NCBI GenBank assembly: GCA_038214715.1
Contig: JBBQRP010000012.1
Location: forward strand, 43,634-107,633
DNA from: Thermoanaerobaculia bacterium
Lineage (GTDB): Bacteria; Acidobacteriota; Thermoanaerobaculia; UBA5066
Direction: 5' to 3'
Length of the DNA: 64,000 bases
Part shown: positions 26,756 to 46,492 of the stretch, piece after piece
Layout: every line of letters starts with the position of its first letter
Position numbering within the stretch: the stretch's first letter is position 1
Notes under the pieces: model-generated
Told to the model about the DNA's origin: nothing
Database searches by the model: none
The model's input: the letters and a program-made list of their open reading frames with translations, nothing else
Position numbers and translations under genes: made by a program

Positions 26756-26763
26756 CCGCAGCC

Positions 26764-27675
26764 TCACGGGACGGGATGCAGCGGCGGCTCTCCCCGGACG
26801 AAGCGGACGATCTCCTCGCAGGCGAGGCGCGCCATCGCGAGGCGTGCCTCGTGCGTCGCGGAGCCGAGGTGCGGGAGAAGGACGACGTTCGAAAGAACGG
26901 CGAGAGCCTCCTCGATCCGAGGCTCGCGCTCGAACACGTCCAGCCCGGCGCCAAAGAGATGCCTCGAATGAACGGCGGCGGCGAGCGCCTTCTCGTCGAC
27001 GATCGGACCGCGCGCGGTGTTGACGACGATCGCCCCCTCTTTCATTCGCAGAAATTCTCTCTCTCCGAATCTCCCGCGCGTGTCCGCGGTCAACGGCGCA
27101 TGAATCGAGAGGACATCCACTTTCGAGAGGAAGTCTTCCAGCTCTCCCTCTCCCCCGCCTTTCCCAAACGGAAGGACGTTCATTCCGAACGCCGCTCCGC
27201 GGTGCGCGACGGCGCGGCCGATGCGGCCCATGCCGTAGATTCCGAGAGTCTTGCCCGCGAGAGACACGCCGAGGAGCTCCCGCGGTTTCCATCCGCTCCA
27301 GTCGCCGGAGCGCGCGAGCGCCTCCCCTTCGCGCAGCCGCCTCGCCACGGCCAGGATCAGCGCCCACGTGAGGTCCGCCGTCGCGTCCGTGAGCACGTCC
27401 GGCGTATTCGTCACGAGAATGCCTCGCTTCCGGCACGCGGCAAGGTCCAGATGGTCCACGCCGGCGGAGTGGCTCGCCACGAGGACGACTCGGGGAGCCG
27501 CGGCGAGGACGGCCTCGGTCACGTGTTCGGCCGGCGTCGGAAGGAGGGCGTCGACGCCCGCAAGAAGCGGCCATTCGGAGGCCGGGAGACCGCCGCGCCC
27601 CGTGATCACGTCGTGACCGGCGAGGAGCTCTCTCGTGGACGGCTCGACGACTGGCTGGCCGACGAAGATCTTCAC
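26764..27675 (-). CDS. D-isomer-specific 2-hydroxyacid dehydrogenase (glyoxylate/hydroxypyruvate reductase-like)
   Basis: GIYGMGRIGRAVA NAD motif and a catalytic His region. GTG start in a GTGA overlap with the upstream small ORF. Confidence 0.8.
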   Translation of the reverse strand: MKIFVGQPVVEPSTRELLAGHDVITGRGGLPASEWPLLAGVDALLPTPAEHVTEAVLAAAPRVVLVASHSAGVDHLDLAACRKRGILVTNTPDVLTDATADLTWALILAVARRLREGEALARSGDWSGWKPRELLGVSLAGKTLGIYGMGRIGRAVAHRGAAFGMNVLPFGKGGGEGELEDFLSKVDVLSIHAPLTADTRGRFGEREFLRMKEGAIVVNTARGPIVDEKALAAAVHSRHLFGAGLDVFEREPRIEEALAVLSNVVLLPHLGSATHEARLAMARLACEEIVRFVRGEPPLHPVP

Positions 27676-27845
27676 GGCGTCTTGAACGGACGCACGAGCA
27701 GCCAGCCCGCCAGGAACACGCCCGCCCCCGCGAAGAACATGCGCTCCTCGTAGCGCAGGTCGTCCCGGACGAGACCCACCGCGAGACCGAGGCCGACGAG
27801 GCCGATCCCGACGAGCTGCAGCGAGCGGCCGATTGCGAACCTCAT
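27672..27845 (-). CDS. Small membrane protein (57 aa, two hydrophobic helices)
   Basis: MRFAIGRSLQLVGIGLVGLGLAVGL...FFAGAGVFLAGWLLV. ATGA overlap with the cyclophilin gene stop and GTGA overlap with the next gene. Confidence 0.45.
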   Translation of the reverse strand: MRFAIGRSLQLVGIGLVGLGLAVGLVRDDLRYEERMFFAGAGVFLAGWLLVRPFKTP

Positions 27846-30711: not shown

Positions 30712-31233
30712 TCAGCAGCCCCCGGCGATGCGTGGGTCGAGCAGGAGAGCCAGCCTGCCGGCGACGTCGCCGGGATTCGCGTGTTGATCCACTTCCAGAG
30801 TCCGGTCCGCCATTTTATAGAAGGCGCGGCGCGCTTCCCACAGCAATCGGGCGGAATCCAGAGAATCGAACAGGGGGCGATCGGCCGCCTTGTCGCGGAG
30901 CCGGGCCGCGAGGACCTCGAACGGAGGGTCCAGGAAGACCGAAACCCCGTGTTCCCGCACGAAACGCACGTTCTCGGGGAACGTGAACGTGCCGCCTCCA
31001 AGGGCGATTACCGCGTGAGAGAGGGTAGCGGTCCCCCGGAGCAGCTCAGCCTCCCGCTCGCGGAAGTACGCTTCTCCGTGCGTTTCGAACGTCTCGCGGA
31101 TCGTCCGGCCCGAGATCGACTCGAACGCGAGGTCGAGGTCCACGAACGGCACGCCCCATCGGTCCGCAAGGATGCGTCCGCTCGTCGTCTTTCCGCTTCC
31201 CATGAACCCGACGAGGTACACGCGCCCGGGCAT
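30712..31233 (-). CDS. aroK: Shikimate kinase
   Basis: VYLVGFMGSGKTT P-loop and shikimate-kinase length (about 173 aa). The track ORF extends to 31635. Confidence 0.8.
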   Translation of the reverse strand: MPGRVYLVGFMGSGKTTSGRILADRWGVPFVDLDLAFESISGRTIRETFETHGEAYFREREAELLRGTATLSHAVIALGGGTFTFPENVRFVREHGVSVFLDPPFEVLAARLRDKAADRPLFDSLDSARLLWEARRAFYKMADRTLEVDQHANPGDVAGRLALLLDPRIAGGC

Positions 31234-31262
31234 CCGGGCTTCCCCGGAAGCGGAACGGCCGA

Positions 31263-32633
31263 TCAGCGTGGCGGGAAGCTCTTCAGCCACCGCTCGAGCC
31301 ACTTCGTGGAAACGCGGCCGCGGCGCACGTCGGGGTCGTCCAGGAGCCTGAGGTGCAGCGGGATCGTGGTCTTGACGCCTTCCACGATGAAGAGCTCCAG
31401 CGCGCGCCGTCCGCGGCTCAGTGCTTCCTCGCGGTCGCGGCCGTGCACGATGAGCTTCGCGATGAGGGAGTCGTAGTAGGGCGGGATCTTCCATCCCGAG
31501 TACGCCGCCGTGTCGACGCGGACGCCGGGGCCGCCCGGAAGATGGAGCGTCGTGATGGTTCCCGGCGAGGGCGAGAACGTGACCGGATCCTCGGCGTTGA
31601 TCCGGAATTCGATCGCGTGCCCTTGAGGCCTCCATCCCAGCCCGTCACCCGGCGGCGTCGGCCCGAACGAAAGCGGCTCTCCGGCCGCCACACGGATCTG
31701 CTCCTTCACGAGGTCGAAGCCGGTCACCATCTCGGTCACGGGGTGCTCGACCTGGATCCGCGTGTTCATCTCCATGAAGTAGAAGGAGCCGTCGTCGTCG
31801 AGCAGGAACTCCACGGTTCCCGCGCCGACGTAATCGACGGCCCGCGCGACGGCGATCGCGGCCGCGCCCATCTTCGCGCGCAGGGCGTCCGTGAGCGCGG
31901 GCGAGGGAGACTCCTCGAGGACTTTCTGATGCCGCCGCTGCAGCGAGCACTCGCGCTCGCCGAGATGCACGATCCGGCCCGCGCGGTCCCCGAAGATCTG
32001 GATCTCGATGTGGCGCGGCTCGGCGAGGTACTTCTCGAGATAGACGCTGCCGTTCCCGAAGGCGCGCTCGGCCTCCGCGGTCGCGAGATCGAATGCCGCC
32101 GCGAGCTCCTTGTCGGACCTCGCGACGCGCATGCCGCGCCCGCCGCCACCGGCCACCGCCTTCAGGAGAACCGGGTACCCGACGCCCTCGGCGAGGTTCA
32201 TCGCGTCCTCGATGGAATCGAGCGGTCCGGGGCTGCCGGGAACCGTGGGCACGCCCACCTTCCGGACCGTCTCCTTCGCGACCGCCTTGTCGCCCATCCG
32301 CCGGATCGCGTCCGGTGAGGGCCCGATCCACTTCAGGCCGACCTCCTCGAGGATTTCGGCGAAGTGCGCGTTCTCGGCCAGGAACCCGTAGCCCGGATGC
32401 ACGGCGTCGGCGCCCGTAATCTCCGCGGCGGCGACGAGCGACGTGATGTTCAGGTAGGACCCCGACGGCGCCGCAGGCCCGATGCAGACGGACTCGTCCG
32501 CCGCGCGCACGTGCAGCGAGTCGCGGTCCGCCTCCGAGTGGACCGCCACCGTGGCGATCGACAGCTCCTTGCACGCCGCGATGACACGCAGCGCGATTTC
32601 TCCGCGATTGGCGACGAGGATCTTCTGAAACAT
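31263..32633 (-). CDS. accC: Acetyl-CoA carboxylase biotin carboxylase subunit
   Basis: [20 protein letters not shown]... ATP-grasp domain and a biotin-carboxylase C-domain. Confidence 0.92.
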
Positions 32634-32643
32634 CGGTCGATTT

Positions 32644-33135
32644 TCAGCGCGGCTGGATCGCGAAGAGCTTCTCTCCGAACTCCACGGGCTGCGCGTTCTG
32701 CGGGAAGATGGAGATCACCGTTCCCGCGACGTCCGCCTCGATTTCGTTCATGAGCTTCATCGCCTCGACGATGCAAAGGGTCTTGCCCTTCTCCACGACG
32801 TCGCCGACCTTCACGAAGGGATCGGAGTCCGGATTCGCCGAACGGTAGAACGTCCCGACGATCGGCGCGGTGATGACGTGGAAGCCCTCGCGCTCGCCGG
32901 AGCCCGTCGGGCCGGGCGACACGTGCGGGGCGGCCAACGCGCCCTGCGAGGCAGGCGGCAGCGCGGGCGCTTCCTGCGGAATCGGCTCGGCGACCGCGTG
33001 CGTGAAGACCGGAGCCGCGCGTTGGGCGGGCGCGCCCTCGATGCGAAGGCGGAAGCCCGCCCGCTCGATCTCGAGGCCCGCAAGGCCCCGGCGCGACACC
33101 AGTTCGACGAGTTCCTTGATCTCCTTGACGTTCAT
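32644..33135 (-). CDS. accB: Biotin carboxyl carrier protein
   Basis: Biotinyl-lysine motif [15 protein letters not shown] and a Pro/Ala linker. Confidence 0.9.
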
Positions 33136-33175: not shown

Positions 33176-34825
33176 TCACCGGACCGCCGGCCGGAGCGCG
33201 CGCGCCGTACGCGCCGCTTCCCAACGGATCTCGCCCAGCACCGCGTCCGGGTCGACCTGCAGGATGAGAGAGTAGTCGGCGTTCACCCGCGAGACGACCG
33301 CGGCTCCGGTGGGGCCCGCGACAGCGAACGATTCGAGCTCGCCCGCTCCCGTCTCGGAGGTCGTCCGGCGGACGTTCTTCAGGAACGAGCTCAGCTCCGC
33401 GACGAGGACTTCCATTCCGGCGTCGCGCGAGGCCGTTCCGGCCATCACCACCGGAAGACCCTCGAGATCCGTCAGGGTCGCGGCGCGGATGCCCTCCGTG
33501 CCTTCGACGAGATTCGAGATGACGCCGTGGAGATGATCGACGGTCACCTCCATCCGGTTGGGGAACCGCCTTGCAAGGCGTCGCAGCCGGGGATGATCCG
33601 TCCGTTCGCCTCCCGGAACCGACGCCGCCTTTTCGCGAAGGGTGCGCGCACGCTCTTCGTCGGCGGCCGCCTCCGCGAGCGTTCGATAGGTCTCGCGCGC
33701 GTCCGCCATGTGCCCCTGCGCGCGGTAGAGATCGCCGAGGGTCTCGGAGACGAGAGGCTCCTCGGGCACACGCACCGGGGCCGCCGCGGCCCGCTGGAGA
33801 AGAGGCTCGGGAGCTCCGAGACGCGCGGCCGGCGTTTCCTCCGGCTCGACCGGGATGTCGAACGGCGCCGTCTCGACGGGTTCGGGTGGCCGCGCCTGGG
33901 CTTCCGTGCGGTAGAGATCCACCGGGAACGTGAAGGGGGCGGTTGCCTCTTCCTCCGGGACGTCGGACTCGCCGCCCGCGTCACCGAACGTGAACGGGGG
34001 CATTTCCGGCCCGGCCTCCTCGCGTACCGCCCGAATGGGCGCCGTGAAAGGCGAGAGCGCCGGCGGCGAGATCGCCTTCGCCGGGGGTTCCGGCGGCTGA
34101 ACGATGGTTTCTTCGAGCGCCGCGGGCGTCTCGAGGCGGGCTGGCTCCGCGGGGCCGGACCGGGCGGCCTTGACGGCCCTCGCGAGGACACCCCCGTCAT
34201 ACGTCATCGCCATGAGGTCCGGCGCCGTCTCGCGGGGAAGAGGCGGTGCCGCTTCGGGCGGGGCCGGCGTGCGGTCGAGCCGCGGAATCATCGCGACGCG
34301 GCGGACGCCGCTCGCGTAGTGCGATGGGCGCGGGGTCTCGCCGGATTCGGAAAGCGCCTGATGAACGCCGGAGCGGGGCCGCTCGGCCACCGCGGCCGAC
34401 ATCTCCCCTTCGAGCCGCTGGATGATCTCGGATACGTCGCGATCGCCGGCCTTCAGGCCCCTGTAGAGCTTCAGTTTCTTGATCGCCTCGATCTTGTCGC
34501 CCTTCGCGAGGTAGACCTCCGCGAGCTGCCGGATCGCGACGAGGTTCTCACGGTCGATCCGGAGGGCATTCGTGAACGCACGAATCGCGTCCTCGAGCCG
34601 GTCCAGCTGCTGATAGGTCCTTCCGAGAGCGACGAAGGCCGCCACGGACGTCGAGTGCATTTGAAGGCCGCGTTCGAGCGTGATGACCGCGTCGCGGTAC
34701 TTGCCGTGGCGCCGGTATTCCTCCGCGAGCGCGAGGAACTGGCGGGACGTCGGGTCCTTCTGGAGGAGCCTCTTGAGCTCCTCCAGGCGAGAGACCGGGG
34801 TGGAAGGACCGCCGAAGAGCGCCAT
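33176..34825 (-). CDS. TPR-repeat protein with Pro-rich linker and C-terminal roadblock/LC7 domain
   Basis: N-terminal TPRs (about 130 aa), a roughly 250-aa Pro/Ala/Glu-rich region and a second TPR, then a C-terminal roughly 110 aa matching the Robl/LC7 (MglB-like) pattern ([20 protein letters not shown]...[28 protein letters not shown]). Confidence 0.7.
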
Positions 34826-34873
34826 GTGCGTTAGCTCGACTCCGAAGTCTACGGCATTGGGTTCCGGAGACAG

Positions 34874-34900
34874 TTCGGGCCGCCCGGAGGCGGCCCGAAC
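34874..34900 (-). terminator. Perfect GC hairpin (12-bp stem) between the IPT/TIG gene and the TPR-roadblock gene
   Basis: GTTCGGGCCGCC-TCCG-GGCGGCCCGAAC on the transcribed strand with no T-tract, which is common in high-GC genomes. Confidence 0.45.
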
Positions 34901-34921
34901 GAGACTGGCTGAAATCGGTTC

Positions 34922-37516
34922 TCAGTTCACCACGAGTGAGTAGACCCTCGACGCCGTATTGGCCGCCGAGTCGGCGACGTTGATCGTGACGCTGACCGTG
35001 CCGGCTACCGCGGGCGTTCCGGAAATGACTCCGCCGGCGCTGATGACCATCGCCGCGGGGAGTCCGGACGCCGACCAGACGTAGCCGACTCCCGTGCCGC
35101 CGACCGCCGTCATCGCCACGGGACCGTAAGCCACAGTTGCGGTGCCGGAGGGAAGAGACCCGGTCGTGATCGTGACCGGCGCTCGACAGGACGTGTCGAT
35201 CGGGTTGTACACGAGGACGTTCGGCAGGTCGACCGTGCAGCCCGTGCGCGCGCTCTTCAGGCGGATTCCGAACGACGTCGGCACGTACTTGACGCCCGAA
35301 ACCGTCCCTCCGATCAGGCAGTTCTGCTGGTTGAGAGAAATGTTCTGGACGGCGGGCGCGCTGAACGTGAGGCTGGACGAGTTCGAGACGGTGGCGTTGT
35401 TGATCGGTGTGTTCGGAACCGGGACCCCGTCCTTGATGATCTGCACCGTCATCGGATCCGTGAAGTTGCTTCCCGTGACCGTGACGACGACGGGCGTCGT
35501 TCCCGTCGGCCCGGGGAACGCCGAGCCATCCTGGTTCAGGTTGTTCGGCGACGCGTTCGTCGCGACGGGGGGATCGATCCGGTACGTGAACGGCACGATG
35601 AGCGGGGACGGCGTGCACGCGAGGTTCAGGAACGTGATCTCGATCGCCCCGATGAGGTCGGCGCAAACCGGGCTGCCGCCGAGGATCTGGTTGACCGGGG
35701 GCATGTTGACGAGGATCGCGTTGGACGAGACGGAGGGCGCGTTCAGGGGCACGAGAATCCCGCCCGTCCGGAAGTTCGCGACGATCGGCTCCTCGAAGTT
35801 CGCGCCAGAAATCGTAACGGTCGTCGCGACGGTGCCGTTCCCGGCGCTCGGCGAGGCGTTTCCGATGGTCGGACACGAGTAGTACTTGAACGCGGCGGGA
35901 ATGTTCGCCGTCTTTCCCGTGCTCGGATTCACGATGACGATGTCGACGAGCTGGTTCAGGAGACACACGTTGTTCGAGGCGATTGGCGTCTTGAAGACGA
36001 TCGTGTTCACCGAGATGTCAGAAACCTGGCCCTCGACGCGCTGCGCGCCGCAGTTGCCGCCGGTCATGAAGACCTGCATCGGGAACTGGAACCCGGTGCC
36101 AAAGATCGAAACCCGCGTCGAAGAGTCGTTCGGGCCGGTGCGCGGCGAGACCGAGTAGATGACCGGATCGAGGGGTTTTGCCGTGTAGGCGAAGGCGTTC
36201 GCGACCCGCGCGCATCGCTGGTTGACGCTCCCGAGGTCCGTCACGGTCACGTCTACCGTCTCCGGCACGTCCGGGTTGGCCAGCACGCGCCTTGGGCTCG
36301 ACACGACGATCGTCGTGTTCGAGACGTTCCCGACGATCGTGGCCGGGATGCCGCCGAAATCCACCTTGAGGAGAGCCGCATTCGTCCCGAAGCCGCTGCC
36401 TGTAATCGTGACGGTGAGGCCTCCGTCGGAGACGCCGCTGTTCGGCGCAATGCTGGACACGAAGAAGCTCGGGTCCGTATTGCACGCCGCGTTTCCGCCC
36501 GTGCCGCTGTAGGTGAACGGCTTCGGAGCGGTGGCCGATTGCTGAGAGACGAGGCCGATGTCCCGCGTGACGATGACGTCGCACGCCTCGGAAACTGCCG
36601 GGTTCGCGAGGATGTGCGTCGGCGTCGACACCGTGATCAGCGAATCCACCTGGGCGACGATCTGCGCGGACTTTCCGCAGAACGTGACCTGGGTCGTGGC
36701 GAGGTTCGTGCCGAAGTTACGGCCGAGGATCTGGACCGAGTCTCCGCCCGCCGGCGAGCCCGCAACCGGAGAGATCGACGAGATGGACATTTTCTGGGCG
36801 TCCGGAATGCACGCGTAAGTGAAGAGCGTCGCCGCGGGCGGCGAGGGGACGCCGTTCACGACGACGATGACCGGTACCGATTCCGGAACCGCAGGGTTCT
36901 TGAGGGTGCGCGCGGGCGTCAGCACCTTGATCTGTGTGTTCCCCGCGGTCGCCACAGACCCTTCGATGCCGCCAAAGAAGACGCGGACGTTCGTGCCGTT
37001 CCCGAGACGCACGCCCTGGATCGTCACGGAGTCGCCGCCAGCGCACGAGCCGTTCGTCGGAAGGAACGAAGTGATGATCGGGCCGACGTCCTGGACGCCC
37101 TGGAACTGGAGATTCTTCTGCGCGCGGGCGCAGTCGAAGACCGCGGTGACTTGCGCTGTTCCGGAGGCGTTCGTCGAGACGACCGTCACGTCCGCAACGC
37201 CGCCGATGGTCGTCTTCGAGACCGCGTTGAGCCCGTTTTCGTTGAAGAACCCGAGCGTCGTCGAGAATTGCACGGATCCGCCGTCCGGCACGGGCACGCC
37301 GTTCTTCGTGACCGTCGCGCGCACGATCGAACCGGAGCCCACGAAGGGGTTGTCCGTCGTTGCCGTGAGCGTGACGAGCGTCGTGCACGAGCCGCCCGGG
37401 ATCTGGCCGGGCGGGGTCGCGGTACCGGGCGCCGTCGGCGTCTCGCCGGAGCAGCCGCTCAGGAGAACGGCAAGGCCCGCGACCAACGCGGCGTTCGAAA
37501 TCTGAAAACGTCGCAT
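34922..37516 (-). CDS. Large lipoprotein with multiple IPT/TIG-like Ig-fold domains and a C-terminal putative Ig (He_PIG-like) domain
   Basis: Lipobox LLSGC. At least 6 repeated IPT-like units (SIAPNSGVSDGGLTVTITGSGFG... and similar). C-terminal TGSLPSGT...ASGLPAAMVISAGGVISGTPA. ATG at 37516; the track ORF extends to 37540. Confidence 0.72.
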   Translation of the reverse strand: MRRFQISNAALVAGLAVLLSGCSGETPTAPGTATPPGQIPGGSCTTLVTLTATTDNPFVGSGSIVRATVTKNGVPVPDGGSVQFSTTLGFFNENGLNAVSKTTIGGVADVTVVSTNASGTAQVTAVFDCARAQKNLQFQGVQDVGPIITSFLPTNGSCAGGDSVTIQGVRLGNGTNVRVFFGGIEGSVATAGNTQIKVLTPARTLKNPAVPESVPVIVVVNGVPSPPAATLFTYACIPDAQKMSISSISPVAGSPAGGDSVQILGRNFGTNLATTQVTFCGKSAQIVAQVDSLITVSTPTHILANPAVSEACDVIVTRDIGLVSQQSATAPKPFTYSGTGGNAACNTDPSFFVSSIAPNSGVSDGGLTVTITGSGFGTNAALLKVDFGGIPATIVGNVSNTTIVVSSPRRVLANPDVPETVDVTVTDLGSVNQRCARVANAFAYTAKPLDPVIYSVSPRTGPNDSSTRVSIFGTGFQFPMQVFMTGGNCGAQRVEGQVSDISVNTIVFKTPIASNNVCLLNQLVDIVIVNPSTGKTANIPAAFKYYSCPTIGNASPSAGNGTVATTVTISGANFEEPIVANFRTGGILVPLNAPSVSSNAILVNMPPVNQILGGSPVCADLIGAIEITFLNLACTPSPLIVPFTYRIDPPVATNASPNNLNQDGSAFPGPTGTTPVVVTVTGSNFTDPMTVQIIKDGVPVPNTPINNATVSNSSSLTFSAPAVQNISLNQQNCLIGGTVSGVKYVPTSFGIRLKSARTGCTVDLPNVLVYNPIDTSCRAPVTITTGSLPSGTATVAYGPVAMTAVGGTGVGYVWSASGLPAAMVISAGGVISGTPAVAGTVSVTINVADSAANTASRVYSLVVN

Positions 37517-37529
37517 GGAAGTCACCTCG

Positions 37530-38123
37530 TCACTGGGCACGCTTCAGCTCGATGCGTCCAGCGGTCGGATTAAAGAAGAAGATCAGATCGAAGGTCGCCA
37601 CGTTGGAGACGACGGGCTGGCCGGAGAGCGTGTGACCGTACCAGGTCACTTTCCCGGCCTGCCGGATTTCCGCGCGCCCGGTTTCCTTGTCGACTCCCCC
37701 GTTGAACGGGAAGAGCTGGTCGAGGGGAGGACGAATGAGGCTGTCCCCCGACATGTACGGGTAGTTCGCGAGAGTCGAGCTCCCGCCGGCGGGAACGATC
37801 ACGTTGCCGCCGAACGTCTGCTGGGGGGATGCCGTCTTTCCTCCGTCGATCCGGGCCCACACGACGATGTACTGGTCGATCTGGACGTCCAGGAACTGGA
37901 GCGACGTCCCTCCCGGACTCTTGAGGCGGCAGGTGAGAGTCGTCGTCGCGAACTGGACGGGAACGTTCGACGCCACGTTCACGGAGAGCGGCAACAGCGT
38001 GAAGTTCCCGAAGAGGAACACCGGAGTTGCGCTGTCTCCCTGTGTGTTCGTCGAGCAACCCGGGAGCGCGACGAGCGCCGCCGCCGCCGTGGCCGCGAGA
38101 AGGGACTGTGTGAGTTTTTTCAT
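37530..38123 (-). CDS. Lipoprotein, hypothetical
   Basis: Signal peptide plus lipobox ALPGCS. No recognisable domain. Confidence 0.6.
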   Translation of the reverse strand: MKKLTQSLLAATAAAALVALPGCSTNTQGDSATPVFLFGNFTLLPLSVNVASNVPVQFATTTLTCRLKSPGGTSLQFLDVQIDQYIVVWARIDGGKTASPQQTFGGNVIVPAGGSSTLANYPYMSGDSLIRPPLDQLFPFNGGVDKETGRAEIRQAGKVTWYGHTLSGQPVVSNVATFDLIFFFNPTAGRIELKRAQ

Positions 38124-38133
38124 CGTCCGCTCC

Positions 38134-41034
38134 TCAGCGAATGATCCGCGGCGTAATGAAGATCATGAGCTCGTCCGTGCTCTCGGTCTGTGTCCGGCTC
38201 CGGAACAGGTTGCCGAGGATCGGAATTTTCCAAAGGCCCGGAATCATGGACTGGCCGTCGTTCGTCGTGATCTTGAAGATGCCGCCGATCACGGCGGTAC
38301 CGCCGTCGCGCACCATGAGCCGCGTCTTGGCGTCGCGTGTCGTGAGCGGGATGTTCTGGCCGCCCGCGATGTTGATGCCGACCGCCGGCTCGCGCTTCTG
38401 GATCGTGACGTCCATGATGACGGTCCCCTCGTTCGTGATCTGGGGCGTGACGTCGAGGCGGAGCGTCGCGTTGATGTAGAGGACGGACGTCGTGTTGTTG
38501 ACCGTCGTCTGCACCGGGATCTGGAAGCCCGACTGGATCGACGCGAGCTCGCCGGTCTGCGTCTGGACCTTCGGGGTCGAGATGACCTTGACGAGGCCGC
38601 GGGACTCGGCGGCGTGGATCGACGCGTCCAGGTTGAACGTGTTGAGCACGTTCGCGAGGCTGAGCCTCAGCACTTGCGGCGCGCCGCTCGGGAGCGAGAC
38701 GTTCCCGGCAACGTCACCCGAGTTCGGGAAGACGAGACCCGTCGTGTTGCCGTGGGAGGCGTCCGCGAGCCCGTTGAACCCCCACACGATTCCGATCTCG
38801 TTCGAGAACGTGCGGTTCGCCTCGATGATCCGCGCCTCGATCATGACCTGCGGGCTCGCGATGTCGAGGTTCTTGATGAGGTCGAGGACCGTCGGGAGGT
38901 AGTCCGGAAGTTCCTTGATGACGAGCGTGTTCGAGCGCGTGTCGATGAAGATGTCGCCCCGGGCCGACATGACCTTCCGCGCCGTGGCCGCCATCTCCTG
39001 GGCGTTGCCGTAGGAGATCTTCTGGAGGACAGTGCGGAGCGGGCGGTTCTTGTCCTGCGCCTGGATGAACTGGAGCCGGGAGCTCTCCTCCTGCGTCAGC
39101 TTCGCGGTGGACGCGATCCGCATGATGTTCCCCTCAAGGACGTACCCGAGCTGGTTGATCTTGAGGATCAGCTCGAGCGCCTGGTCCCAGGGGATGTCCT
39201 GAAGGCTCACGGTGACCGTGCCGCGGACGTCCGGGTCGAGGACGATGTTCAGCTGCGTCAGTTCGCTGAAGCGCTGAAGCGTGTCCTTGATGTCCGCGTC
39301 CTTGAGGTTGAGCGTGATCGGCTCGCCCGTGTACTGCTTGTCCCCGGAGCCGAGCGTGCGCGCCTCGTAAGGGTTCGCGATCTCGCGCGGGCGCGACGAG
39401 TTGTCCTGCTGCACGAGAAGTGCCTCGGCCGCCTCGATGAGGGCCTTGTCCTCCGCCGTCGCCGTCTTCTTGCGCCGGGGCTCGACGGAGGCGGCGCGGA
39501 CGGGAGCGGACGGGGGGGCCGGCGCTTTGACCTCGGCTTTGACCTCGGGCTTTGCTTCCGGCTTCACGTCAGCCTTCACCTGGTGGAACTCGGGCGGGGC
39601 CTGGACGAGACGGGGCGCCTCCCTCTCGGACGCGGGCTTCGTGTCGAGAGGCCTCGTGTCGAAAGGCTTCGTGTCGAAAGGCTTCGTCTCTTTCGCCTGT
39701 TTCGCCACCGCGGCCGTCGTCGAGGCGGTCGTCACGTCGATGGCTCGGCCCTCGCGGACGACCGGTTCCTTCGGATCGTCGACTTCGTGCTTCTCGTAAG
39801 AGCCTCCCGCGGGAACCGCCGAGGCGGACGCGAGTCTCTCGGGCGCCGCGCGCACGGGCGCCGCACGCACGGGCGCCGCGGCCCTCACGGGCGCCACGGC
39901 GGTTGCCGGAGCGGATTCCGAGATCATGGCCGGAGCCGGCGGCGCGGCCGGGGCGGGAGAGAGAGCGGCGGTTCGCGACGCCTGGCCGAATGAAAGTGCG
40001 AGCGAGGAGGTCGTGTTCCTCGCCGCGGGCTCCGCGGGAGAGACGAGGTCGAACACGACTCTCGTGACGGGCTCGCTGCCGCCCTTGAACTGGGAGACAC
40101 GGACGCGGCTCACGGACTCGTGGTGGACTTCCTGCGACTTCTTCGGTGTCGCAAGGAGAACGCCGGGAAGGTCGACGACGTACCGGGGCGGGTTTTCGAG
40201 CGCGAACGTCTCCCAGGTGAAGCTTCCGTTGCCCGCGAGCGTCGCGACGAGCTTTCCGTCGACCGTCCGGACGCCAACCGCCGAAAGGCGCGTCGCGGGG
40301 CGGCCCACCGCCGCATGCCGGACGGGCACGGGCGGGCCGTCGGAGACGACCGTCGACGGCTTCGCGGCCGGCCCGGGCGCGGAAACGGTTGCGACCGGGG
40401 ACGCCGCAGCGAGGGCCGGTGTGGTCATATTGGCGGACGCCGTCTTGGCGGACGTGGCGGACGCGGCGTCTTCGACCTTCACGAGAGGCTCGGCGGCCGG
40501 CGGAGCGGTTTCCGGAGTGCGCGCGGCCTCGACGGGTAGGACCGCGGCGAGCGTCGCTGCCGGCGCGGACGCCCTGGCGGCAGGCTTTCCGAGCGCGATC
40601 GCCATGGCGGGTGAGCCCGAATCGGAGGTGATGGCAGGTTCGATCGGCCCGCGCCCGGTGAGCTCGAACTGAATGTGGGGCTTGCCCATTTCCGTGAACG
40701 ACTTCATGTCGAGCCGCGACAGGACGACGCCGTCGGCGCGGGGCGGCTCGAGCCCGGGCGACATCACGGCGTTCGCGACGTCGATGACGACCTTCGTCGA
40801 CCCTTCGCGGTTGTAGAGCGTCGGAGCGAGAGGGCCGTTTCCGGTCAGAAGGAGCCGGGGCGTCTCCCCATCGGTCAGGAGCGTGGCTCCCGTGAGCGTT
40901 GCGGGCGCGGCTCCAGCCGCGGACGGATCCCCCGCGGCGACCCGGTCGCTGCGCGACGCGCAGGCGCCCATCACGGGGACGATCAACGCGAACGCCGCGA
41001 AACGGGACGCGACTCCCCTTCGGTTTCGCCGCAT
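38134..41034 (-). CDS. pilQ: Type IV pilus secretin PilQ with extended low-complexity N-terminal region
   Basis: C-terminal secretin domain (VISTPKVQTQTGELASIQSG, IPGLWKIPILGNLF), N0/N1-like domains, and an N-terminal Ala/Pro-rich region with KPFDT and KAEVK repeats. ATG at 41034 has a GGAGG RBS. The track ORF extends to 41124. Confidence 0.9.
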   Translation of the reverse strand: MRRNRRGVASRFAAFALIVPVMGACASRSDRVAAGDPSAAGAAPATLTGATLLTDGETPRLLLTGNGPLAPTLYNREGSTKVVIDVANAVMSPGLEPPRADGVVLSRLDMKSFTEMGKPHIQFELTGRGPIEPAITSDSGSPAMAIALGKPAARASAPAATLAAVLPVEAARTPETAPPAAEPLVKVEDAASATSAKTASANMTTPALAAASPVATVSAPGPAAKPSTVVSDGPPVPVRHAAVGRPATRLSAVGVRTVDGKLVATLAGNGSFTWETFALENPPRYVVDLPGVLLATPKKSQEVHHESVSRVRVSQFKGGSEPVTRVVFDLVSPAEPAARNTTSSLALSFGQASRTAALSPAPAAPPAPAMISESAPATAVAPVRAAAPVRAAPVRAAPERLASASAVPAGGSYEKHEVDDPKEPVVREGRAIDVTTASTTAAVAKQAKETKPFDTKPFDTRPLDTKPASEREAPRLVQAPPEFHQVKADVKPEAKPEVKAEVKAPAPPSAPVRAASVEPRRKKTATAEDKALIEAAEALLVQQDNSSRPREIANPYEARTLGSGDKQYTGEPITLNLKDADIKDTLQRFSELTQLNIVLDPDVRGTVTVSLQDIPWDQALELILKINQLGYVLEGNIMRIASTAKLTQEESSRLQFIQAQDKNRPLRTVLQKISYGNAQEMAATARKVMSARGDIFIDTRSNTLVIKELPDYLPTVLDLIKNLDIASPQVMIEARIIEANRTFSNEIGIVWGFNGLADASHGNTTGLVFPNSGDVAGNVSLPSGAPQVLRLSLANVLNTFNLDASIHAAESRGLVKVISTPKVQTQTGELASIQSGFQIPVQTTVNNTTSVLYINATLRLDVTPQITNEGTVIMDVTIQKREPAVGINIAGGQNIPLTTRDAKTRLMVRDGGTAVIGGIFKITTNDGQSMIPGLWKIPILGNLFRSRTQTESTDELMIFITPRIIR
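39636..39690 (-). repeat. 15-bp coding tandem repeat (about 3.5 copies) inside the pilQ N-terminal region
   Basis: gcttcgtgtcgagag / gcctcgtgtcgaaag / gcttcgtgtcgaaag / gcttcgtctc. On the coding strand this encodes KPFDTKPFDTRPLDTKP. Confidence 0.8.
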
Positions 41035-41120: not shown

Positions 41121-41618
41121 TCACGACTTCTTCGAGAGCGTGAGCGCCTTGACCACTTCCCGGAACGGTTTCGGATTCGTGGGATCGTTGACGTTCTGCC
41201 GGAACGTCACTTCCGTAGCGGAAACTTCGACGACTTCGCCATCGAAGAGCGTGGTTCCCTTCCGGATCAGGTGCGACTTGTTGTCCGGGCCCCGCATCAT
41301 GGCGATCCAGCCCTGCTTGACCTTGATCGTGCCCTGGAGCTCGAGCTCGTCCACCATCACGCCGGCAAGGCCCGGCGGGCGAACGCGATCCTTGTCCGAC
41401 GGATTGCGAACGAGGAGCGAGCGGAACGGATCGCGGCGGCCCCCGACCTCGTACGTGTAAACCGACGGAACGAAATCCTGTTCGGTGACCTTCCCCGCGC
41501 CCGCGTCGGGCGGCGCGCCGGACGAAGTCGCGGGGGGGGCCTGTGCGAAGGCGGACGCCGTCCCGAGGCAGACGGCCAGGGAGAGGAATGCGGCGGGAAG
41601 ACTTCGGATTCTCATCAT
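41121..41618 (-). CDS. pilP: Type IV pilus assembly protein PilP (lipoprotein)
   Basis: Signal peptide plus Cys (LAVCLG) and the PilP beta-domain. The ATGATG start overlaps the pilO stop (ATGA). The track ORF 41121..42446 is rejected upstream of this. Confidence 0.8.
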   Translation of the reverse strand: MMRIRSLPAAFLSLAVCLGTASAFAQAPPATSSGAPPDAGAGKVTEQDFVPSVYTYEVGGRRDPFRSLLVRNPSDKDRVRPPGLAGVMVDELELQGTIKVKQGWIAMMRGPDNKSHLIRKGTTLFDGEVVEVSATEVTFRQNVNDPTNPKPFREVVKALTLSKKS

Positions 41619-42283
41619 TCGAGCGAATCCTTCTTGCCGGACGAAGCGACGGGCGCCTTTTTCGGCGCCGCGGCTGCGGCTGCGGCTGTCGCTCCGGTCG
41701 CGTCCGTGTCGCCGAGGTAAATGAAGGTCTTCATCGTGAAGTTCGCGCCGAGGGTCCGTCCACCCGCCGCGTCGGGGTAGCCCACCATCACGAGATCCTC
41801 GATGTTGATGATCCGCGAGAAGCGCGCGACCTTCTCGAAGAAGAGCGCGAGGTTGTGATACGTCCCGTCGACCTGGAGGTCGATGGGCCACTCCGCGTAG
41901 AAGTCCTTGTTGATGTATTCCTTCGGCGCCCACTTCTTCAGGAAAAACTCTCCCTGACCCGCGAGCGCCTGGATCTTCTTGATGAGCTCTTCGGCGTTGC
42001 GGGCGGTGGGGAGGATCTGCAGGAGCCTCTGAAGGTCGAGCTCGGTCCGGCGGACCTCCTCGCGCAGCTGGGGCAGGCGGCGCTCGGCCGCGCGGCCCTG
42101 GTTGATCTTCGCGTTGAGCTGATCGAGCTCGTTCTTCTTGTTCTCCAGCGTCTGCTTCATCTCGCCGAAATTCGGGAGCTGGTAATACGCCGCCGCGTAG
42201 AGTGCGATCGCGATCGCGAGACCGATGCCCAGTCCGTAGTACCAGGGCTTGCCTTCGAGCTGCTTGAGGTCGAGCGACGCCAT
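41615..42283 (-). CDS. pilO: Type IV pilus assembly protein PilO
   Basis: Single N-terminal TM helix, coiled coil, and a PilO-like periplasmic domain. Gene order pilM-N-O-P-Q. Confidence 0.82.
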   Translation of the reverse strand: MASLDLKQLEGKPWYYGLGIGLAIAIALYAAAYYQLPNFGEMKQTLENKKNELDQLNAKINQGRAAERRLPQLREEVRRTELDLQRLLQILPTARNAEELIKKIQALAGQGEFFLKKWAPKEYINKDFYAEWPIDLQVDGTYHNLALFFEKVARFSRIINIEDLVMVGYPDAAGGRTLGANFTMKTFIYLGDTDATGATAAAAAAAPKKAPVASSGKKDSLE

Positions 42284-42286
42284 GGC

Positions 42287-42946
42287 CTATATCCCCGCCA
42301 CGGCGGAACCGGGTCTTCCCGCTTCCGCCTTGTTCGGCGCTTCGGCCGGTTTCGCGGCCCCGGCATCGGGCTGCGTCCTGTCGATGTTCGAGAACACGAA
42401 GTTCGTCTTGAAGCAGTAGAGCGCCGAGCCCCCTGGACCTCCGCACGCCGAGAACTCGACCTTCGGTTCCTGGAAGGCGGGCACGAGCTTCAGGTTCGCC
42501 ACGAAGTTCGCGACCGCGGGCGGGTTGAAGGCCTTTCCGTCGATCGCGATGGCGTTCCCGTGATACTCCATTCGCTCGATCCAGACGAGGTCCGGGAGAG
42601 CCTTCGAAACCTCGTCCATCAGCCGGACGGGCCCACGCTGGTTCTGCTTGAGCTGGTTGATGAGGTCGACCTTGCGCTGGACGCGGGCCTTTTTCGCCTC
42701 GTAGTCCTTCACTTCCTTGAGGACCGCCTCGAGGCGCGCGACCTCGATCTGCGCGATCCGGATCTTCTCTTCCTGGGCCTTGATCTGCGACCGCAGCACC
42801 CAGTAATGGACGATCCCGATGAGGATGGCGAGACCGATGACGCCGCCCATGAGGAGCGTGTTGAGCCGCCCCGCGCCGCCCAGCGCCGAAACGCCCCTCT
42901 TCTTGCGCTGCGGCCGGGCCTCGGAGAGCAGGTTGATGCGAATCAT
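42287..42946 (-). CDS. pilN: Type IV pilus assembly protein PilN
   Basis: MIRINLL N-terminus, TM helix and coiled coil. Confidence 0.85.
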   Translation of the reverse strand: MIRINLLSEARPQRKKRGVSALGGAGRLNTLLMGGVIGLAILIGIVHYWVLRSQIKAQEEKIRIAQIEVARLEAVLKEVKDYEAKKARVQRKVDLINQLKQNQRGPVRLMDEVSKALPDLVWIERMEYHGNAIAIDGKAFNPPAVANFVANLKLVPAFQEPKVEFSACGGPGGSALYCFKTNFVFSNIDRTQPDAGAAKPAEAPNKAEAGRPGSAVAGI

Positions 42947-42950
42947 GCCG

Positions 42951-44006
42951 CTACTCCCCGATCTTCCGGACGCCGAGGCCGACGGCGATCGCGAGCGAGG
43001 GCGACGCCTCGGAGAGCCACGCCGCGTCGACGGCCCGGTCGTCCGTGAAGATCGAGCGGAACGGGTTGAGGACCTCGACCGGCAGGCCGAACTTGTCCTT
43101 GAGGACGTCTTCGAGGTGCGCGGCCTTCGCGCCGCCGCCGGAGATCATGATCGAGTCGACCCGGTCCGCGCCCGAAGTCGCCTGGAAGAAATCCAGCGTC
43201 TTTTGAAGCTCGGCGGCCGCGTCCTCGGCGACACCCGTGAGCACGGGCTGGATCGTCTGGGCCGTCTGTCCCGCCACAGGCTCGCCCCGTTTCAGCGACT
43301 CGGCCTGCTCGAAGTTGAGCGAATAGGCCTTCTGGAGGGCGTCCGTGAACTGGTTTCCGCCGAACGTGATGTCGCGCCAGAAGACCGTCTGCCCCTGGGC
43401 GAGAATGTTGACGTTCATCACGGACGCGCCCACGTTCACGAGGGCCACGACGCGGCCCGGGTCGGCGCCGTAATTCACCTCGTAACAGTTCTGGAGAGCG
43501 AAGGCGTCCACGTCGACGAGCGACGGCGTGCGCCCGGCCTGCGTGACGACGTTCTTGAAGTCGTCGACCTTTTCCTTCTTCGCGGCCACGAGAAGAACGC
43601 CCATGGTCTCGCCCACCGCGCCCGGGTCGAGCACGACGTAGTCGAGGTAGACGTCGTTGATGTCGAAGGGGACGTACTGCTCGGCCTCCCAGCGGATGGA
43701 CTCCGAGAGCTCCTCTTCCGGCATCGTCGGAAGCATGATCTTCTTGACGATGACCGAGTGGCCCGACACGGATACGGCCACGTTCGGGTTCTTTACGTTG
43801 GTGGACGCCAGGAGCCGCGAGATCGTCTCCACCACGAGGGAGGAGTCCATGATCGCGCCGTCCACGATCGCCTCCGGAGAAAGCACCTCCAGGCCCGCCT
43901 TGACGAGCTGAAACGTGCCCTCCTTGCCCTCCTTCAGCTCGACGAGCTTCACAGCCGACGAGCCGATGTCGAGACCGACCAGGTTTTTCGCCTTTCGGAA
44001 CAGCAC
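42951..44006 (-). CDS. pilM: Type IV pilus assembly ATPase-like protein PilM (actin-like)
   Basis: VLFRKAKNLVGLDIGSSAVKLVEL... actin-fold PilM. GTG start at 44006 with a GAGGGAGGG RBS. The track ORF 42951..45002 is rejected upstream of this. Confidence 0.85.
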   Translation of the reverse strand: MLFRKAKNLVGLDIGSSAVKLVELKEGKEGTFQLVKAGLEVLSPEAIVDGAIMDSSLVVETISRLLASTNVKNPNVAVSVSGHSVIVKKIMLPTMPEEELSESIRWEAEQYVPFDINDVYLDYVVLDPGAVGETMGVLLVAAKKEKVDDFKNVVTQAGRTPSLVDVDAFALQNCYEVNYGADPGRVVALVNVGASVMNVNILAQGQTVFWRDITFGGNQFTDALQKAYSLNFEQAESLKRGEPVAGQTAQTIQPVLTGVAEDAAAELQKTLDFFQATSGADRVDSIMISGGGAKAAHLEDVLKDKFGLPVEVLNPFRSIFTDDRAVDAAWLSEASPSLAIAVGLGVRKIGE

Positions 44007-44293: not shown

Positions 44294-46492
44294 TCAGCCG
44301 GCCTCGACATCCGTGTCGCGCAGCTTGCGGCGCACGTCCATCACACCCGGCAGGGCCCGGAGGGAGACGAGGAGCCGCTCGAGGTGCCGCCGGTCCCGGG
44401 TCGTGACGCTCGCCTCGATCGAGGCGTTCCCGTCGTGACTCGTGCGGGCCTCGATCGAACGGATGTTCGAGTTCGCGGCCGAAAGCACCTGCGTGATGCG
44501 GGCGAGCATTCCCTGCCGGTCTTCCGTCCGAATCTCGAGGTCGACGGTGACAGTCGCGTCCTTCGCGGTCTGCCACTCGACGGGAATCTCGCGGCCGGGG
44601 TCGAAGAGAAGCGCCCGGACGTTCGAACAGGTGGTCGTGTGCACGGAGACGCCGCGCCCCCGCGTGACGTAGCCGACGACGTCGTCCCCCGGCACGGGCT
44701 GGCAGCATTTCGCGAGCGTCGCGAGAAGATCGTTCTCCCCCTTCACACGGATCCCGGTCGTTGCGCCGAAGGGAAGAACGCGCCGAACTGCGCTCGAGAT
44801 CGCCGCGACGCGGGAGGGCGGCGGCGGCGCGCCCTCGGGGGGCGAGGCGGCCTCGGGCAGGAGCTTCGCGACGAGAGCGCGCGGGGCGATCTTTCCGGAG
44901 CCCACGTCGGCGATCAGGTCTTCGACCTTGGCGACCCCGAAATCCCCGAGCACGGTGTCGAGAGCCTTCGACTCGAGGAGCTTCGCGAGGCTCTTCTTCC
45001 ACTTCTTGAGCTCGCGCTCCAGGAGGCGCCGGCCGATCTCGACAGACTGCTCCTTCTCGGCCGCATGAATGAAGCCCTTGATCTTGTTGCGGGCCCGCGA
45101 GGTGACGGCGAAGGAGAGCCAGTCCCGCGACGGATGCGCCGACGGCGCCGTCAGGATCTCGACGATGTCTCCGTTCTCGAGGGGAGACTTGAGCGGCACG
45201 AGGCGGCCGTTCACCCGCGCGCCGACGCAGTGGTGTCCGACGTCCGTGTGGACCCGGAAGGCGAAGTCCACGGGGGTCGCTCCCCTCGGGAACGCGTAGA
45301 CGGCTCCCTTCGGGCTGAAGGTGTAGACGTCGTCCGGGTAGAGGTCGATCCTGAGAGACGACAGGAACTCCCTCGGGTCCGAGACGTCCTTCGTCGTCTC
45401 GAGGATCTGGCGGAGGACCCCGACGTGCTCCTCGTGCCGCGCGTCCGTCCGCACGAGCTTCCCCTCTTTGTACTTCCAGTGGGCCGCGATGCCGTTTTCG
45501 GCCACGAGGTCCATCTCGCGCGTCCGGATCTGCACCTCGAACGGGGGCGCGCCCTCGGGCACGAGCGTCGTGTGGAGGGACTGATAGAAGTTGCGCTTCG
45601 GCATCGCGATGTAGTCCTTGATCCGGCCCGGCACGGGGCGCCAGGACTGATGGACGATTCCGAGCACGGTGTAGCAGTCGGGAATCGTGTCCACGAGCAC
45701 CCGGAACGCGAGGACGTCGTAGAGCTGTTCGAGAGGGATGGCCTGCCGGATGAGCTTCTGCCGGATCGACCAGTAGCGCTTGACGCGTCCCGTGATCTCG
45801 GCCTCGATGCCCATCGCCTTCGTCTTCGCGACGAGTTCGAGCCGGATCTTCTCGACGTTCGCGGCCGAGGCGGCCATCCGCTCGTCCACGGCGGCGCGCA
45901 GGGCGGCGAACTCCTCTGGATGGAGGAATCGGAACGAGAGGTCCTCGAGGTCGCCCTTCATCTTTCCCATGCCGAGGCGGTTCGCGAGCGGGGCGTAGAT
46001 CTCGAGCGTCTCGGCCGCCGTGGCGCGCTGCCGCTCCTCGGGCACGTGCTCGAGCGTCTGCATGTTGTGGAGGCGGTCCGCGAGCTTGACGAGGATGACC
46101 CTGAGATCGTCCGTCATCGCGAGGAGCATCTTGCGGAACGTCTCGGCCTGCTGGGCTTCCCGCGACGTGAACGCGTACTTGCCGATCTTCGTGACGCCGT
46201 CCACGAGGTGCGCGACGTCCGCGCCGAACAGCTCGCCGATGCGCTCCTTCGAGACCGACCCGTCCTCGAGGACGTCGTGAAGAAGGCCCGCGGCGATCGA
46301 TGCGTCGTCGAGCTTCATCTCCGCGAGCGTCATCGCGACCGCGAGCGGATGGACGAGGTACGGCTCTCCCGACGACCGGAGCTGGTTGCGGTGCTCGTGC
46401 GCGGACACGACGTACGCGCGGCGCAGCAGGTCCTCGTCCACCGAGGAGTGGTAGGACTCGACCTTCTCGAGGATGTCCTCGAACCGCAGCAC
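44294..46492 (-). CDS. rel: Bifunctional (p)ppGpp synthetase/hydrolase (RelA/SpoT homologue)
   Basis: HD domain (HPLAVAMTLAEMKLD), synthetase domain, TGS and ACT C-terminal domains. Confidence 0.92.
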   Translation of the reverse strand: MLRFEDILEKVESYHSSVDEDLLRRAYVVSAHEHRNQLRSSGEPYLVHPLAVAMTLAEMKLDDASIAAGLLHDVLEDGSVSKERIGELFGADVAHLVDGVTKIGKYAFTSREAQQAETFRKMLLAMTDDLRVILVKLADRLHNMQTLEHVPEERQRATAAETLEIYAPLANRLGMGKMKGDLEDLSFRFLHPEEFAALRAAVDERMAASAANVEKIRLELVAKTKAMGIEAEITGRVKRYWSIRQKLIRQAIPLEQLYDVLAFRVLVDTIPDCYTVLGIVHQSWRPVPGRIKDYIAMPKRNFYQSLHTTLVPEGAPPFEVQIRTREMDLVAENGIAAHWKYKEGKLVRTDARHEEHVGVLRQILETTKDVSDPREFLSSLRIDLYPDDVYTFSPKGAVYAFPRGATPVDFAFRVHTDVGHHCVGARVNGRLVPLKSPLENGDIVEILTAPSAHPSRDWLSFAVTSRARNKIKGFIHAAEKEQSVEIGRRLLERELKKWKKSLAKLLESKALDTVLGDFGVAKVEDLIADVGSGKIAPRALVAKLLPEAASPPEGAPPPPSRVAAISSAVRRVLPFGATTGIRVKGENDLLATLAKCCQPVPGDDVVGYVTRGRGVSVHTTTCSNVRALLFDPGREIPVEWQTAKDATVTVDLEIRTEDRQGMLARITQVLSAANSNIRSIEARTSHDGNASIEASVTTRDRRHLERLLVSLRALPGVMDVRRKLRDTDVEAG

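Follow-up and report, generated by a model that had tools for sequence, protein, structure and literature searches.

Background

In many Proteobacteria, aroK lies downstream of the secretin gene pilQ. In the 64-kb stretch of Thermoanaerobaculia bacterium contig JBBQRP010000012.1 analyzed here (the whole stretch is referred to as the window), aroK is still found downstream of pilQ, but five genes intervene, encoding a small lipoprotein, an IPT/TIG lipoprotein, a TPR-roadblock protein, AccB and AccC. The order on the minus strand is relA/spoT, pilM-N-O-P-Q, the 197-amino acid (aa) lipoprotein, the 864-aa IPT/TIG lipoprotein, a hairpin, the 549-aa TPR/Pro-rich/roadblock protein and accB-accC-aroK, after which come a metallophosphatase and then a HEAT-cyclophilin protein (Table 1). 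The question raised by this locus is whether the first three of the intervening genes belong to the type IV pilus machine, to the unit that follows it, or to neither.

The best-supported answer is that the outer-membrane module of the type IV pilus exists here in a lineage-specific form that includes two additional lipoproteins. We regard it as roughly an even call that these lipoproteins are lineage-specific accessories of the PilQ complex and that the TPR-roadblock protein is a cytoplasmic scaffold encoded in a separate, adjacent unit. The link of the lipoproteins to the pilus is drawn from gene order, and all statements of function in this report are drawn from gene order together with predicted structure. 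Detailed knowledge of type IV pilus machines comes from only a few phyla, and outer-membrane partners of secretins are still being discovered, recent examples being the belt and cap lipoproteins of Deinococcus (2023) and the Slk plug proteins of Pseudomonas (2026). The lipoprotein and TPR/roadblock candidates described below are offered as hypotheses, and neither overturns current understanding.

Gene order in the window and among relatives

A preliminary description made from the window alone had placed three same-strand genes between pilQ and accB-accC-aroK, with junctions of 10 and 13 nucleotides (nt), and this was confirmed in full by the gene calls and the sequence. Read from the sequence, the 10-nt junction between pilQ and the small lipoprotein gene contains a Shine-Dalgarno-like GGAG, and the 13-nt junction between the small lipoprotein and TIG genes contains a Shine-Dalgarno-like GAGG. 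All open reading frames (ORFs) here have a GC content at third codon positions of 0.83-0.90, typical for coding sequence.

In order to compare the region downstream of pilQ, approximately 45 loci (given labels beginning with L) were gathered from Thermoanaerobaculia/Acidobacteriota metagenome-assembled genomes (MAGs) and metagenome contigs, including 34 species-representative genomes. The loci were obtained by a scan of one genome per GTDB species and from contigs fetched via individual homologues, and the window proteins were then mapped onto them. A narrower lipoprotein alignment was used for the genome scan, the broad family alignment being too divergent. All 34 loci returned by the scan are from uncultured MAGs, nearly all titled Thermoanaerobaculia, Acidobacteriota or Acidobacteria. 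Named homologues are likewise nearly all from Thermoanaerobaculia/Acidobacteriota, the few other labels being probably mis-binned contigs. No cultured or genetically tractable carrier was identified among the carriers found, all of which are uncultured MAGs or metagenome contigs, and no paper linking Thermoanaerobaculia with pilQ was found in the literature.

The order pilM through pilQ, small lipoprotein, TIG, TPR(-roadblock), accB and accC was the same in every locus extending far enough. It also holds in a distant subfamily (62% GC) in which the small lipoprotein is only ~30% identical, and a random insertion is therefore not indicated, as the three genes follow pilQ in all relatives. The arrangement is old and fixed in the lineage, unlike an insertion confined to a single genome.

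The pil genes and a candidate lipidated PilQ

PilM, PilN, PilO and PilQ are encoded in type IVa order and each matched its own family model. The PilP model (PF04351) fell just under its gathering score (Table 1); the position and size of this protein, together with its signal peptide, fit PilP, and the stop codon of pilO overlaps the start of the pilP-like gene. The type IVa pilMNOPQ operon of Pseudomonas, Neisseria and Myxococcus consists of these five genes in this order, and PilQ is above the TIGR02515 cut-off. In contrast to that operon, two lipoprotein genes are appended here, PilQ has a lipobox, and aroK is not followed by aroB. A promoter-like sequence (TTGACA-18-CAAAAT, 44102-44073) lies upstream of pilM. 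On the opposite strand between relA and pilM, rpmB (ribosomal protein L28) was called in several relatives (L004:513-707, L010:571-765, L011:3551-3745 and L046:534-749); it was not called in the 287-nt relA-pilM spacer of the window, nor in L001 or L003.

The PilQ N-terminus (40960-41034, minus strand) carries a lipoprotein-type signal peptide (...FALIVPVMGAC followed by ASRSD). The lipobox is kept in close relatives (LGGC, LAGC, TVAC, AAGC or AFGC) and is absent in three deeper clades. These features suggest lipidation of PilQ, making it a "liposecretin" for which a pilotin may be unnecessary.

The two lipoproteins encoded after pilQ

No Pfam or NCBIfam family was matched by the 197-aa lipoprotein, and a sequence-profile search of the PDB with it returned no matches. 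Homologues fall into 329 clusters, and most full-length representatives (50% identity clustering) are 180-200 aa long, with the invariant motifs RxDGG and NGGxDxETG. The protein was modeled as a beta-sandwich with a predicted local distance difference test (pLDDT) score of 76.8, and it diverges at about the rate of PilQ (e.g., 73% versus 75% in L001). The sandwich module recurs inside larger multi-domain proteins such as P0359 (1715 aa), and in the loci examined, the family was never represented by a stand-alone protein encoded apart from a secretin gene. Both lipoproteins have Ser at position +2 after the lipid cysteine and, because of this, would be targeted to the outer membrane if the sorting rule of E. 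coli applies in this phylum. Given that PilQ has its own lipobox, a classic pilotin role of the small lipoprotein would not be required, and it seems at least equally likely to be a structural partner of ring or belt type. The family lacks a Pfam or NCBIfam model and stays with pilQ throughout a class of Acidobacteria that are abundant in soil and uncultured; as a hypothesis, its member here is a specific candidate for a new partner of secretins.

The TIG domains attributed to the 864-aa protein were recovered by Pfam (PF01833) as six matches, behind a lipobox that marks it as a surface lipoprotein. Its layout is a conserved tether and a Big_1-like domain followed by six or more TIG domains. 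The lipobox is conserved in orthologues, and of the eight orthologue N-termini in which it was seen, seven also retain the tether (C-x-G-E-[ST]-P-T-[AS]-P). Orthologue length runs from 533 to 1973 aa (extremes L046:7276-8877 and L005:3991-9912), and the protein evolves faster than the products of neighboring genes, as expected for an exposed or spacer-like protein. The adhesin role proposed for it in the preliminary description is a possibility. In one relative (L004:7304-9981) the call of the TIG protein is broken into three ORFs, for which a frameshift or an assembly error could be responsible.

A conserved hairpin between the TIG and TPR-roadblock genes

The 96-nt gap between the TIG and TPR-roadblock genes holds a perfect 12-bp GC-rich hairpin (GTTCGGGCCGCC-TCCG-GGCGGCCCGAAC, then TGTCTCC; z = -3.4 by direct folding). 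A hairpin was found at the same place after the TIG gene in 27 of 28 informative loci; L046 stands outside these 28, since it gave an in-gene hairpin only, the coordinate used being probably misplaced. Tails after the hairpin are TGTCTC, TTTCTC or TTTTTCG, with TTTTCTG also seen in other clades. Within the close clade the hairpin core is invariant and its closing pairs are compensatory (TTCGGG/CCCGAA, CTCGGG/CCCGAG and GTACGGG/CCCGTAC). Distant clades have an entirely different stem at the same position (GCCGCCCCCC/GGGGGGCGGC or GCGAACCGCCCC/GGGGCGGTTCGC). Owing to its weak T-tract, the hairpin went undetected in a consensus terminator scan, and an Rfam search of the window gave no match.

In the window, TAGACT lies 20 nt before the ATG of the TPR-roadblock gene, with TG three bases upstream of the motif. 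In a 16-sequence alignment (positions aligned in L001-L041) its six columns are all at least 90% conserved, four of them without exception, and it may be the -10 element of a promoter for the accBC unit.

The preliminary description had the TPR-roadblock gene in line with the pil genes. This needs qualifying: the gene is separated from them by the hairpin and a T-rich tail in those 27 loci and abuts accB at a distance of 12-40 nt across loci (40 nt in the window). With the hairpin placed so consistently after the TIG gene, the pil unit most likely ends there and the TPR-roadblock gene opens a new unit with accBC, so that this gene more probably belongs to the accBC-aroK transcription unit. In the most economical reading, one unit comprises pilMNOPQ, the small lipoprotein and TIG genes, and a second comprises the TPR-roadblock gene, accB, accC, aroK and onward. 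Such a division weakens the link of the roadblock protein to the pilus and strengthens that of the lipoproteins. In the same downstream unit, a thiamine-phosphate synthase (TMP-TENI) domain is encoded before aroK or fused to it in some relatives (L011:18416-19060 and L046:12538-13488).

Architecture of the TPR-roadblock protein

The TPR domain (aa 13-147) was modeled with a pLDDT of ~85 and has three to four repeats. Its identity is 70-96% among fused-gene orthologues and 39-48% in the deepest clades. The linker that follows (aa 148-356) is predicted to be disordered, is acidic (net charge -10) and rich in Pro, Ala and Glu (19% Pro), and varies in length among homologues; a relative (L011:13712-16465) encodes a 917-aa version with a much longer middle region. 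Four x-P-F-x motifs occur in the linker (LSPFTA, MPPFTF, TAPFTF and TAPFDI), and in distant clades the split TPR proteins repeatedly show similar [ED][ES]PF motifs; such sequences may be short linear binding motifs. A conserved TPR-like hairpin (aa 357-402) precedes the roadblock domain.

The N-terminus has no hydrophobic signal peptide. The protein is therefore predicted to be cytoplasmic, and it cannot be a pilotin of the PilF/PilW/Tgl type. Those pilotins are also TPR proteins that are encoded near PilQ or needed for it, but unlike them, the protein here has neither signal peptide nor lipobox. A pilotin role was rejected on these grounds and on the weak NCBIfam matches (TIGR02521 at 41.9 bits for the TPR-roadblock protein, and Tgl for a split orthologue), which are far below the cut-offs of 154 and 225 bits.

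The Pfam model Robl_LC7 (PF03259) scored below its cut-off in the window protein (Table 1) and above it in the L011 orthologue (26.2 bits), and many homologues carry PF03259 in precomputed annotation. A family profile built from the C-terminal 200 residues of 12 homologues matched roadblock structures in the PDB (7f8f, 3.4e-8; 7f8m, 8.7e-6; 9jue, 1.3e-4; Myxococcus xanthus MglC, 8e-4). The AlphaFold2 model of aa 429-544 has the alpha-beta-beta-alpha-beta-beta-beta-alpha topology of roadblock domains (pLDDT ~90), and in Foldseek it matched Asgard roadblocks (9jue), MglB and LAMTOR subunits with target template modeling (TM) scores of 0.77-0.87. The roadblock domain first read from the sequence is thus real, the family profile and predicted fold making up for the sub-threshold Pfam score of the window copy, and membership of the roadblock superfamily is established.

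The TPR-roadblock fusion reported for the window protein stands, but as a lineage-specific state, the two parts being separate genes in deeper clades. There (L009, L042-L046) a 297-400-aa TPR protein is followed by a separate 116-122-aa roadblock gene directly upstream of accB. The free roadblock family comprises 2094 clusters (90% identity) compared with 169 for the fused form. We infer that the change ran toward fusion, the fused form being probably the derived state. By the Rosetta-stone argument, parts that are split in sister clades and fused here would work together, and the TPR/roadblock pair, which most lineages encode as two genes, would make a clean case of this kind for a large unstudied class of orphan roadblock proteins.

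Search for a GTPase or an MglB relationship

No MglA/Ras-like gene was found in the window by tblastn with M. xanthus MglA and HRas or by Pfam scans of the window ORFs, in agreement with the preliminary description, and no mglA was found by tblastn within the ~10-kb flanks of any of the 45 related loci. The M. xanthus MglA query was validated against the PDB, and the MglB sequence was checked against PDB 6h5b. The coupling of roadblock and mglA genes within four genes that was used by Wuichet and Søgaard-Andersen (2014) is absent here, and the domain counts as an "orphan" roadblock.

Alignment of the family profile to M. xanthus MglB with hhalign was non-significant (E 0.23 over 27 columns), and MglB was not among the matches of the roadblock family in the profile search of the PDB. 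Placing the MglB interface residues A64/G68 by hand on helix alpha-2 gave a register too uncertain for use. The closest sequence-level matches of the domain are Asgard roadblocks and MglC, not MglB. The likeness to MglB is at the level of the predicted fold only, and membership of the MglB family of GTPase-activating proteins (GAPs) is not established. Homologues are annotated by the Joint Genome Institute (JGI) as "predicted regulator of Ras-like GTPase activity." The suggestion that the protein is an adaptor for pilus polarity or regulation has gained little, given that its positive support consists of the fold and the neighborhood and that no GTPase was found nearby.

Comparison with known systems

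RomR, a polarity scaffold of M. xanthus, has a Pro-rich and Glu-rich disordered region. The TPR-roadblock protein resembles it in combining a folded interaction domain with an acidic Pro-rich disordered region, and RomR acts in a system that also uses roadblock proteins; the TPR-roadblock protein has no receiver domain, and the likeness is one of analogy only. With MglB, MglC and other bacterial roadblocks (M. xanthus, Thermus thermophilus), the C-terminal domain shares the fold topology and, for MglC, the profile match. It differs from them in being fused to a TPR domain via a long disordered linker, in lacking a neighboring GTPase gene and in having a family profile that does not align significantly to MglB. 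The uncoupling of a roadblock gene from mglA is shared with the orphan-MglB class (Wuichet and Søgaard-Andersen 2014).

The secretin complex of Deinococcus radiodurans includes the lipoproteins DR_1364 (the IPT/TIG "belt," GspP) and DR_0940 (the 208-aa "cap," GspT) (PDB 8CO1; PMC10828601). No sequence-level similarity to GspP or GspT was seen here, Foldseek did not recover a match, and a PDB search with the TIG protein retrieved no 8co1 chain. Whereas the Deinococcus lipoprotein genes are not adjacent to the secretin gene, both genes here directly follow pilQ, and against one TIG domain in Deinococcus, six Pfam matches indicate six or more in the TIG protein.

Proposed organization and alternatives

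In the organization that we favor, the first unit would be a pilMNOPQ operon extended by two genes close-packed with pilQ and ending at an intrinsic terminator. The small lipoprotein would serve as a ring, belt or pilotin-like partner of the secretin, and the long TIG protein as a stalk or adhesin anchored beside the pore. After the terminator, the cytoplasmic TPR-roadblock protein would start the accB-accC-aroK unit. Roadblock domains dimerize, as is established for MglB, LAMTOR and LC7, and for this reason the protein would be a dimeric scaffold presenting two TPR heads. It could act with an MglA-type GTPase encoded at a distance, with a component of the pilus or with another partner.

Several points weigh against this organization. 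The lipobox of PilQ itself in this clade may make a pilotin unneeded. The terminator is a prediction, and its tail in the window (TGTCTCC) is weakly T-rich, so read-through into the TPR-roadblock gene is possible. Finally, synteny in these genomes extends over all of relA to aroK and further, so that functional linkage cannot be told from frozen gene order by conserved adjacency alone.

An extension of the same organization, which we consider improbable, is that the small lipoprotein (as ring) and the TIG protein (as Ig-domain stalk) are stoichiometric subunits, together with a lipidated PilQ, of a three-protein outer-membrane portal that, with a TPR/roadblock adaptor, would make up an "Acidobacteriota-type" pilus machine. 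The portal would then have an analogue, and possibly an ancient relative, in the GspD-GspP-GspT complex of Deinococcus, and the TPR/roadblock pair would be an unrecognized cytoplasmic polarity or assembly adaptor without a neighboring GTPase.

A different role for the TPR-roadblock protein, which we judge rather doubtful, is that of an MglB-like GAP or partner of a Ras-like GTPase encoded elsewhere, setting the polarity or activity of the neighboring pili. It would fit the Foldseek match of the roadblock fold to MglB (E 2e-6, TM 0.77-0.86), the JGI name of the homologues, and the gene never being separated from the pil block in the ~45 loci. Acidobacteria are among the bacteria with group 1 MglA, and orphans made up 328 of 749 MglB homologues, none characterized at that time (Wuichet and Søgaard-Andersen 2014, PMC4316618); TPR proteins are MglA partners in Bdellovibrio (PMC3983030). 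Set against these points are the lack of an MglA/Ras-like gene in the window or the flanks of related loci, the non-significant alignment to M. xanthus MglB, and best sequence-level matches to Asgard roadblocks and to MglC, which is an adaptor without GAP activity. The conserved terminator also stands between the pil genes and the TPR-roadblock gene, which is packed against accB, and accBC and aroK adjoin it just as invariantly. Were the hairpin instead an mRNA-stabilizing or processing element or a repetitive extragenic palindromic-like repeat, pilM through aroK would be one long operon that includes the TPR-roadblock gene. The core (CGGGCCGC...GCGGCCCG) is sequence-invariant within the close clade, which is unusual for a simple terminator, the tail in the window is poor in T, and the consensus scan did not flag the hairpin. 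We nevertheless think a single operon decidedly unlikely, as other clades have a different stem at the same position with a TTTTTCG or TTTTCTG tail, and the conserved TAGACT ~20 nt before the start codon in the window is as expected for a new promoter.

The three genes could also stand beside pilQ through frozen order alone, the lipoproteins being general surface or adhesion proteins and the TPR-roadblock protein a housekeeping scaffold. Collinearity among all relatives extends over the entire 20-kb neighborhood (relA, pil, acc, aroK, metallophosphatase, HEAT-cyclophilin), multi-TIG lipoproteins are frequent on cell surfaces, and the small-lipoprotein fold is a generic sandwich that is also found inside larger proteins such as P0359. 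This account is unlikely in our view: the short junctions, with no terminator before the end of the TIG gene, indicate co-transcription with pilQ, the pilQ-lipoprotein-TIG linkage persists to 30% identity in contigs of differing GC content, and the small lipoprotein never stood alone away from a secretin gene in the loci examined.

Locus features and other observations

Coordinates of the features are collected in Table 1. The pilM start was inferred from orthologue length (351 aa) and the aroK start from orthologues.

Table 1. Features of the pilM-aroK region (positions are those of the window unless a locus label is given)
Feature	Coordinates	Strand	Evidence and remarks
relA/spoT	44294-46492	minus	
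pilM	~42951-44006	minus	PilM_2 1e-76; ~351 aa
pilN	42287-42946	minus	PilN 4e-11
pilO	41615-42283	minus	PilO 1.4e-29
pilP-like	41121-41618	minus	PilP 25.0 bits (gathering cut-off 25.6); signal peptide; 165 aa
pilQ	38134-41034	minus	966 aa; Secretin, AMIN, STN, Secretin_N; TIGR02515 346.7 bits (cut-off 284.35)
197-aa lipoprotein	37530-38123	minus	Lipobox LPGC followed by S; uncharacterized family; predicted beta-sandwich fold
Multi-IPT/TIG lipoprotein	34922-37516	minus	864 aa from MRRFQ; lipobox LSGC followed by SGETPTAP; TIG 1e-48, six stretches
Hairpin (probable intrinsic terminator)	34866-34900	minus	12 bp, GC-rich, tail TGTCTCC
TAGACT motif (possible -10 element)	34846-34851	minus	Alignment conservation
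TPR/Pro-rich/roadblock gene	33176-34825	minus	549 aa
TPR domain, aa 13-147	34385-34789	minus	TPR_2 5e-12 and other TPR models
Disordered linker, aa 148-356	33758-34384	minus	pLDDT <50; composition
TPR-like helical hairpin, aa 357-402	33620-33757	minus	Weak TPR_21 and TPR_6 matches; conservation; structure model
Roadblock/LC7 domain, aa 429-544	33194-33541	minus	Robl_LC7 19.1 bits (cut-off 23); family profile; fold match
accB	32644-33135	minus	Biotin_lipoyl 4e-20
accC	31263-32633	minus	CPSase_L_D2, Biotin_carb_N, Biotin_carb_C
aroK	30712-31266	minus	SKI 5e-37; overlaps accC stop codon
Free-standing roadblock gene	L009:5295-5663; L042-L046, e.g., L046:10001-10351		

The 64-kb window has a GC content of 65-74%, and the surrounding genes are housekeeping genes, including relA/spoT, secDF-yajC, tgt, proS, gdh and accBC. 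At 51507-55624 (minus strand), the ORF list has two overlapping entries, a 1136-aa AAA_27 protein and a 403-aa metallophosphatase, which resemble an SbcC/SbcD-type pair; this region has the highest GC content of the window (0.72-0.74). Long ORFs without a Pfam match are present on both strands at 24922-27753 (plus) and 26003-27574 (minus), with a GC content of 0.70-0.71. At the place corresponding to 24922-27753, relatives encode an ABC_tran_2 permease beside an ABC ATPase.

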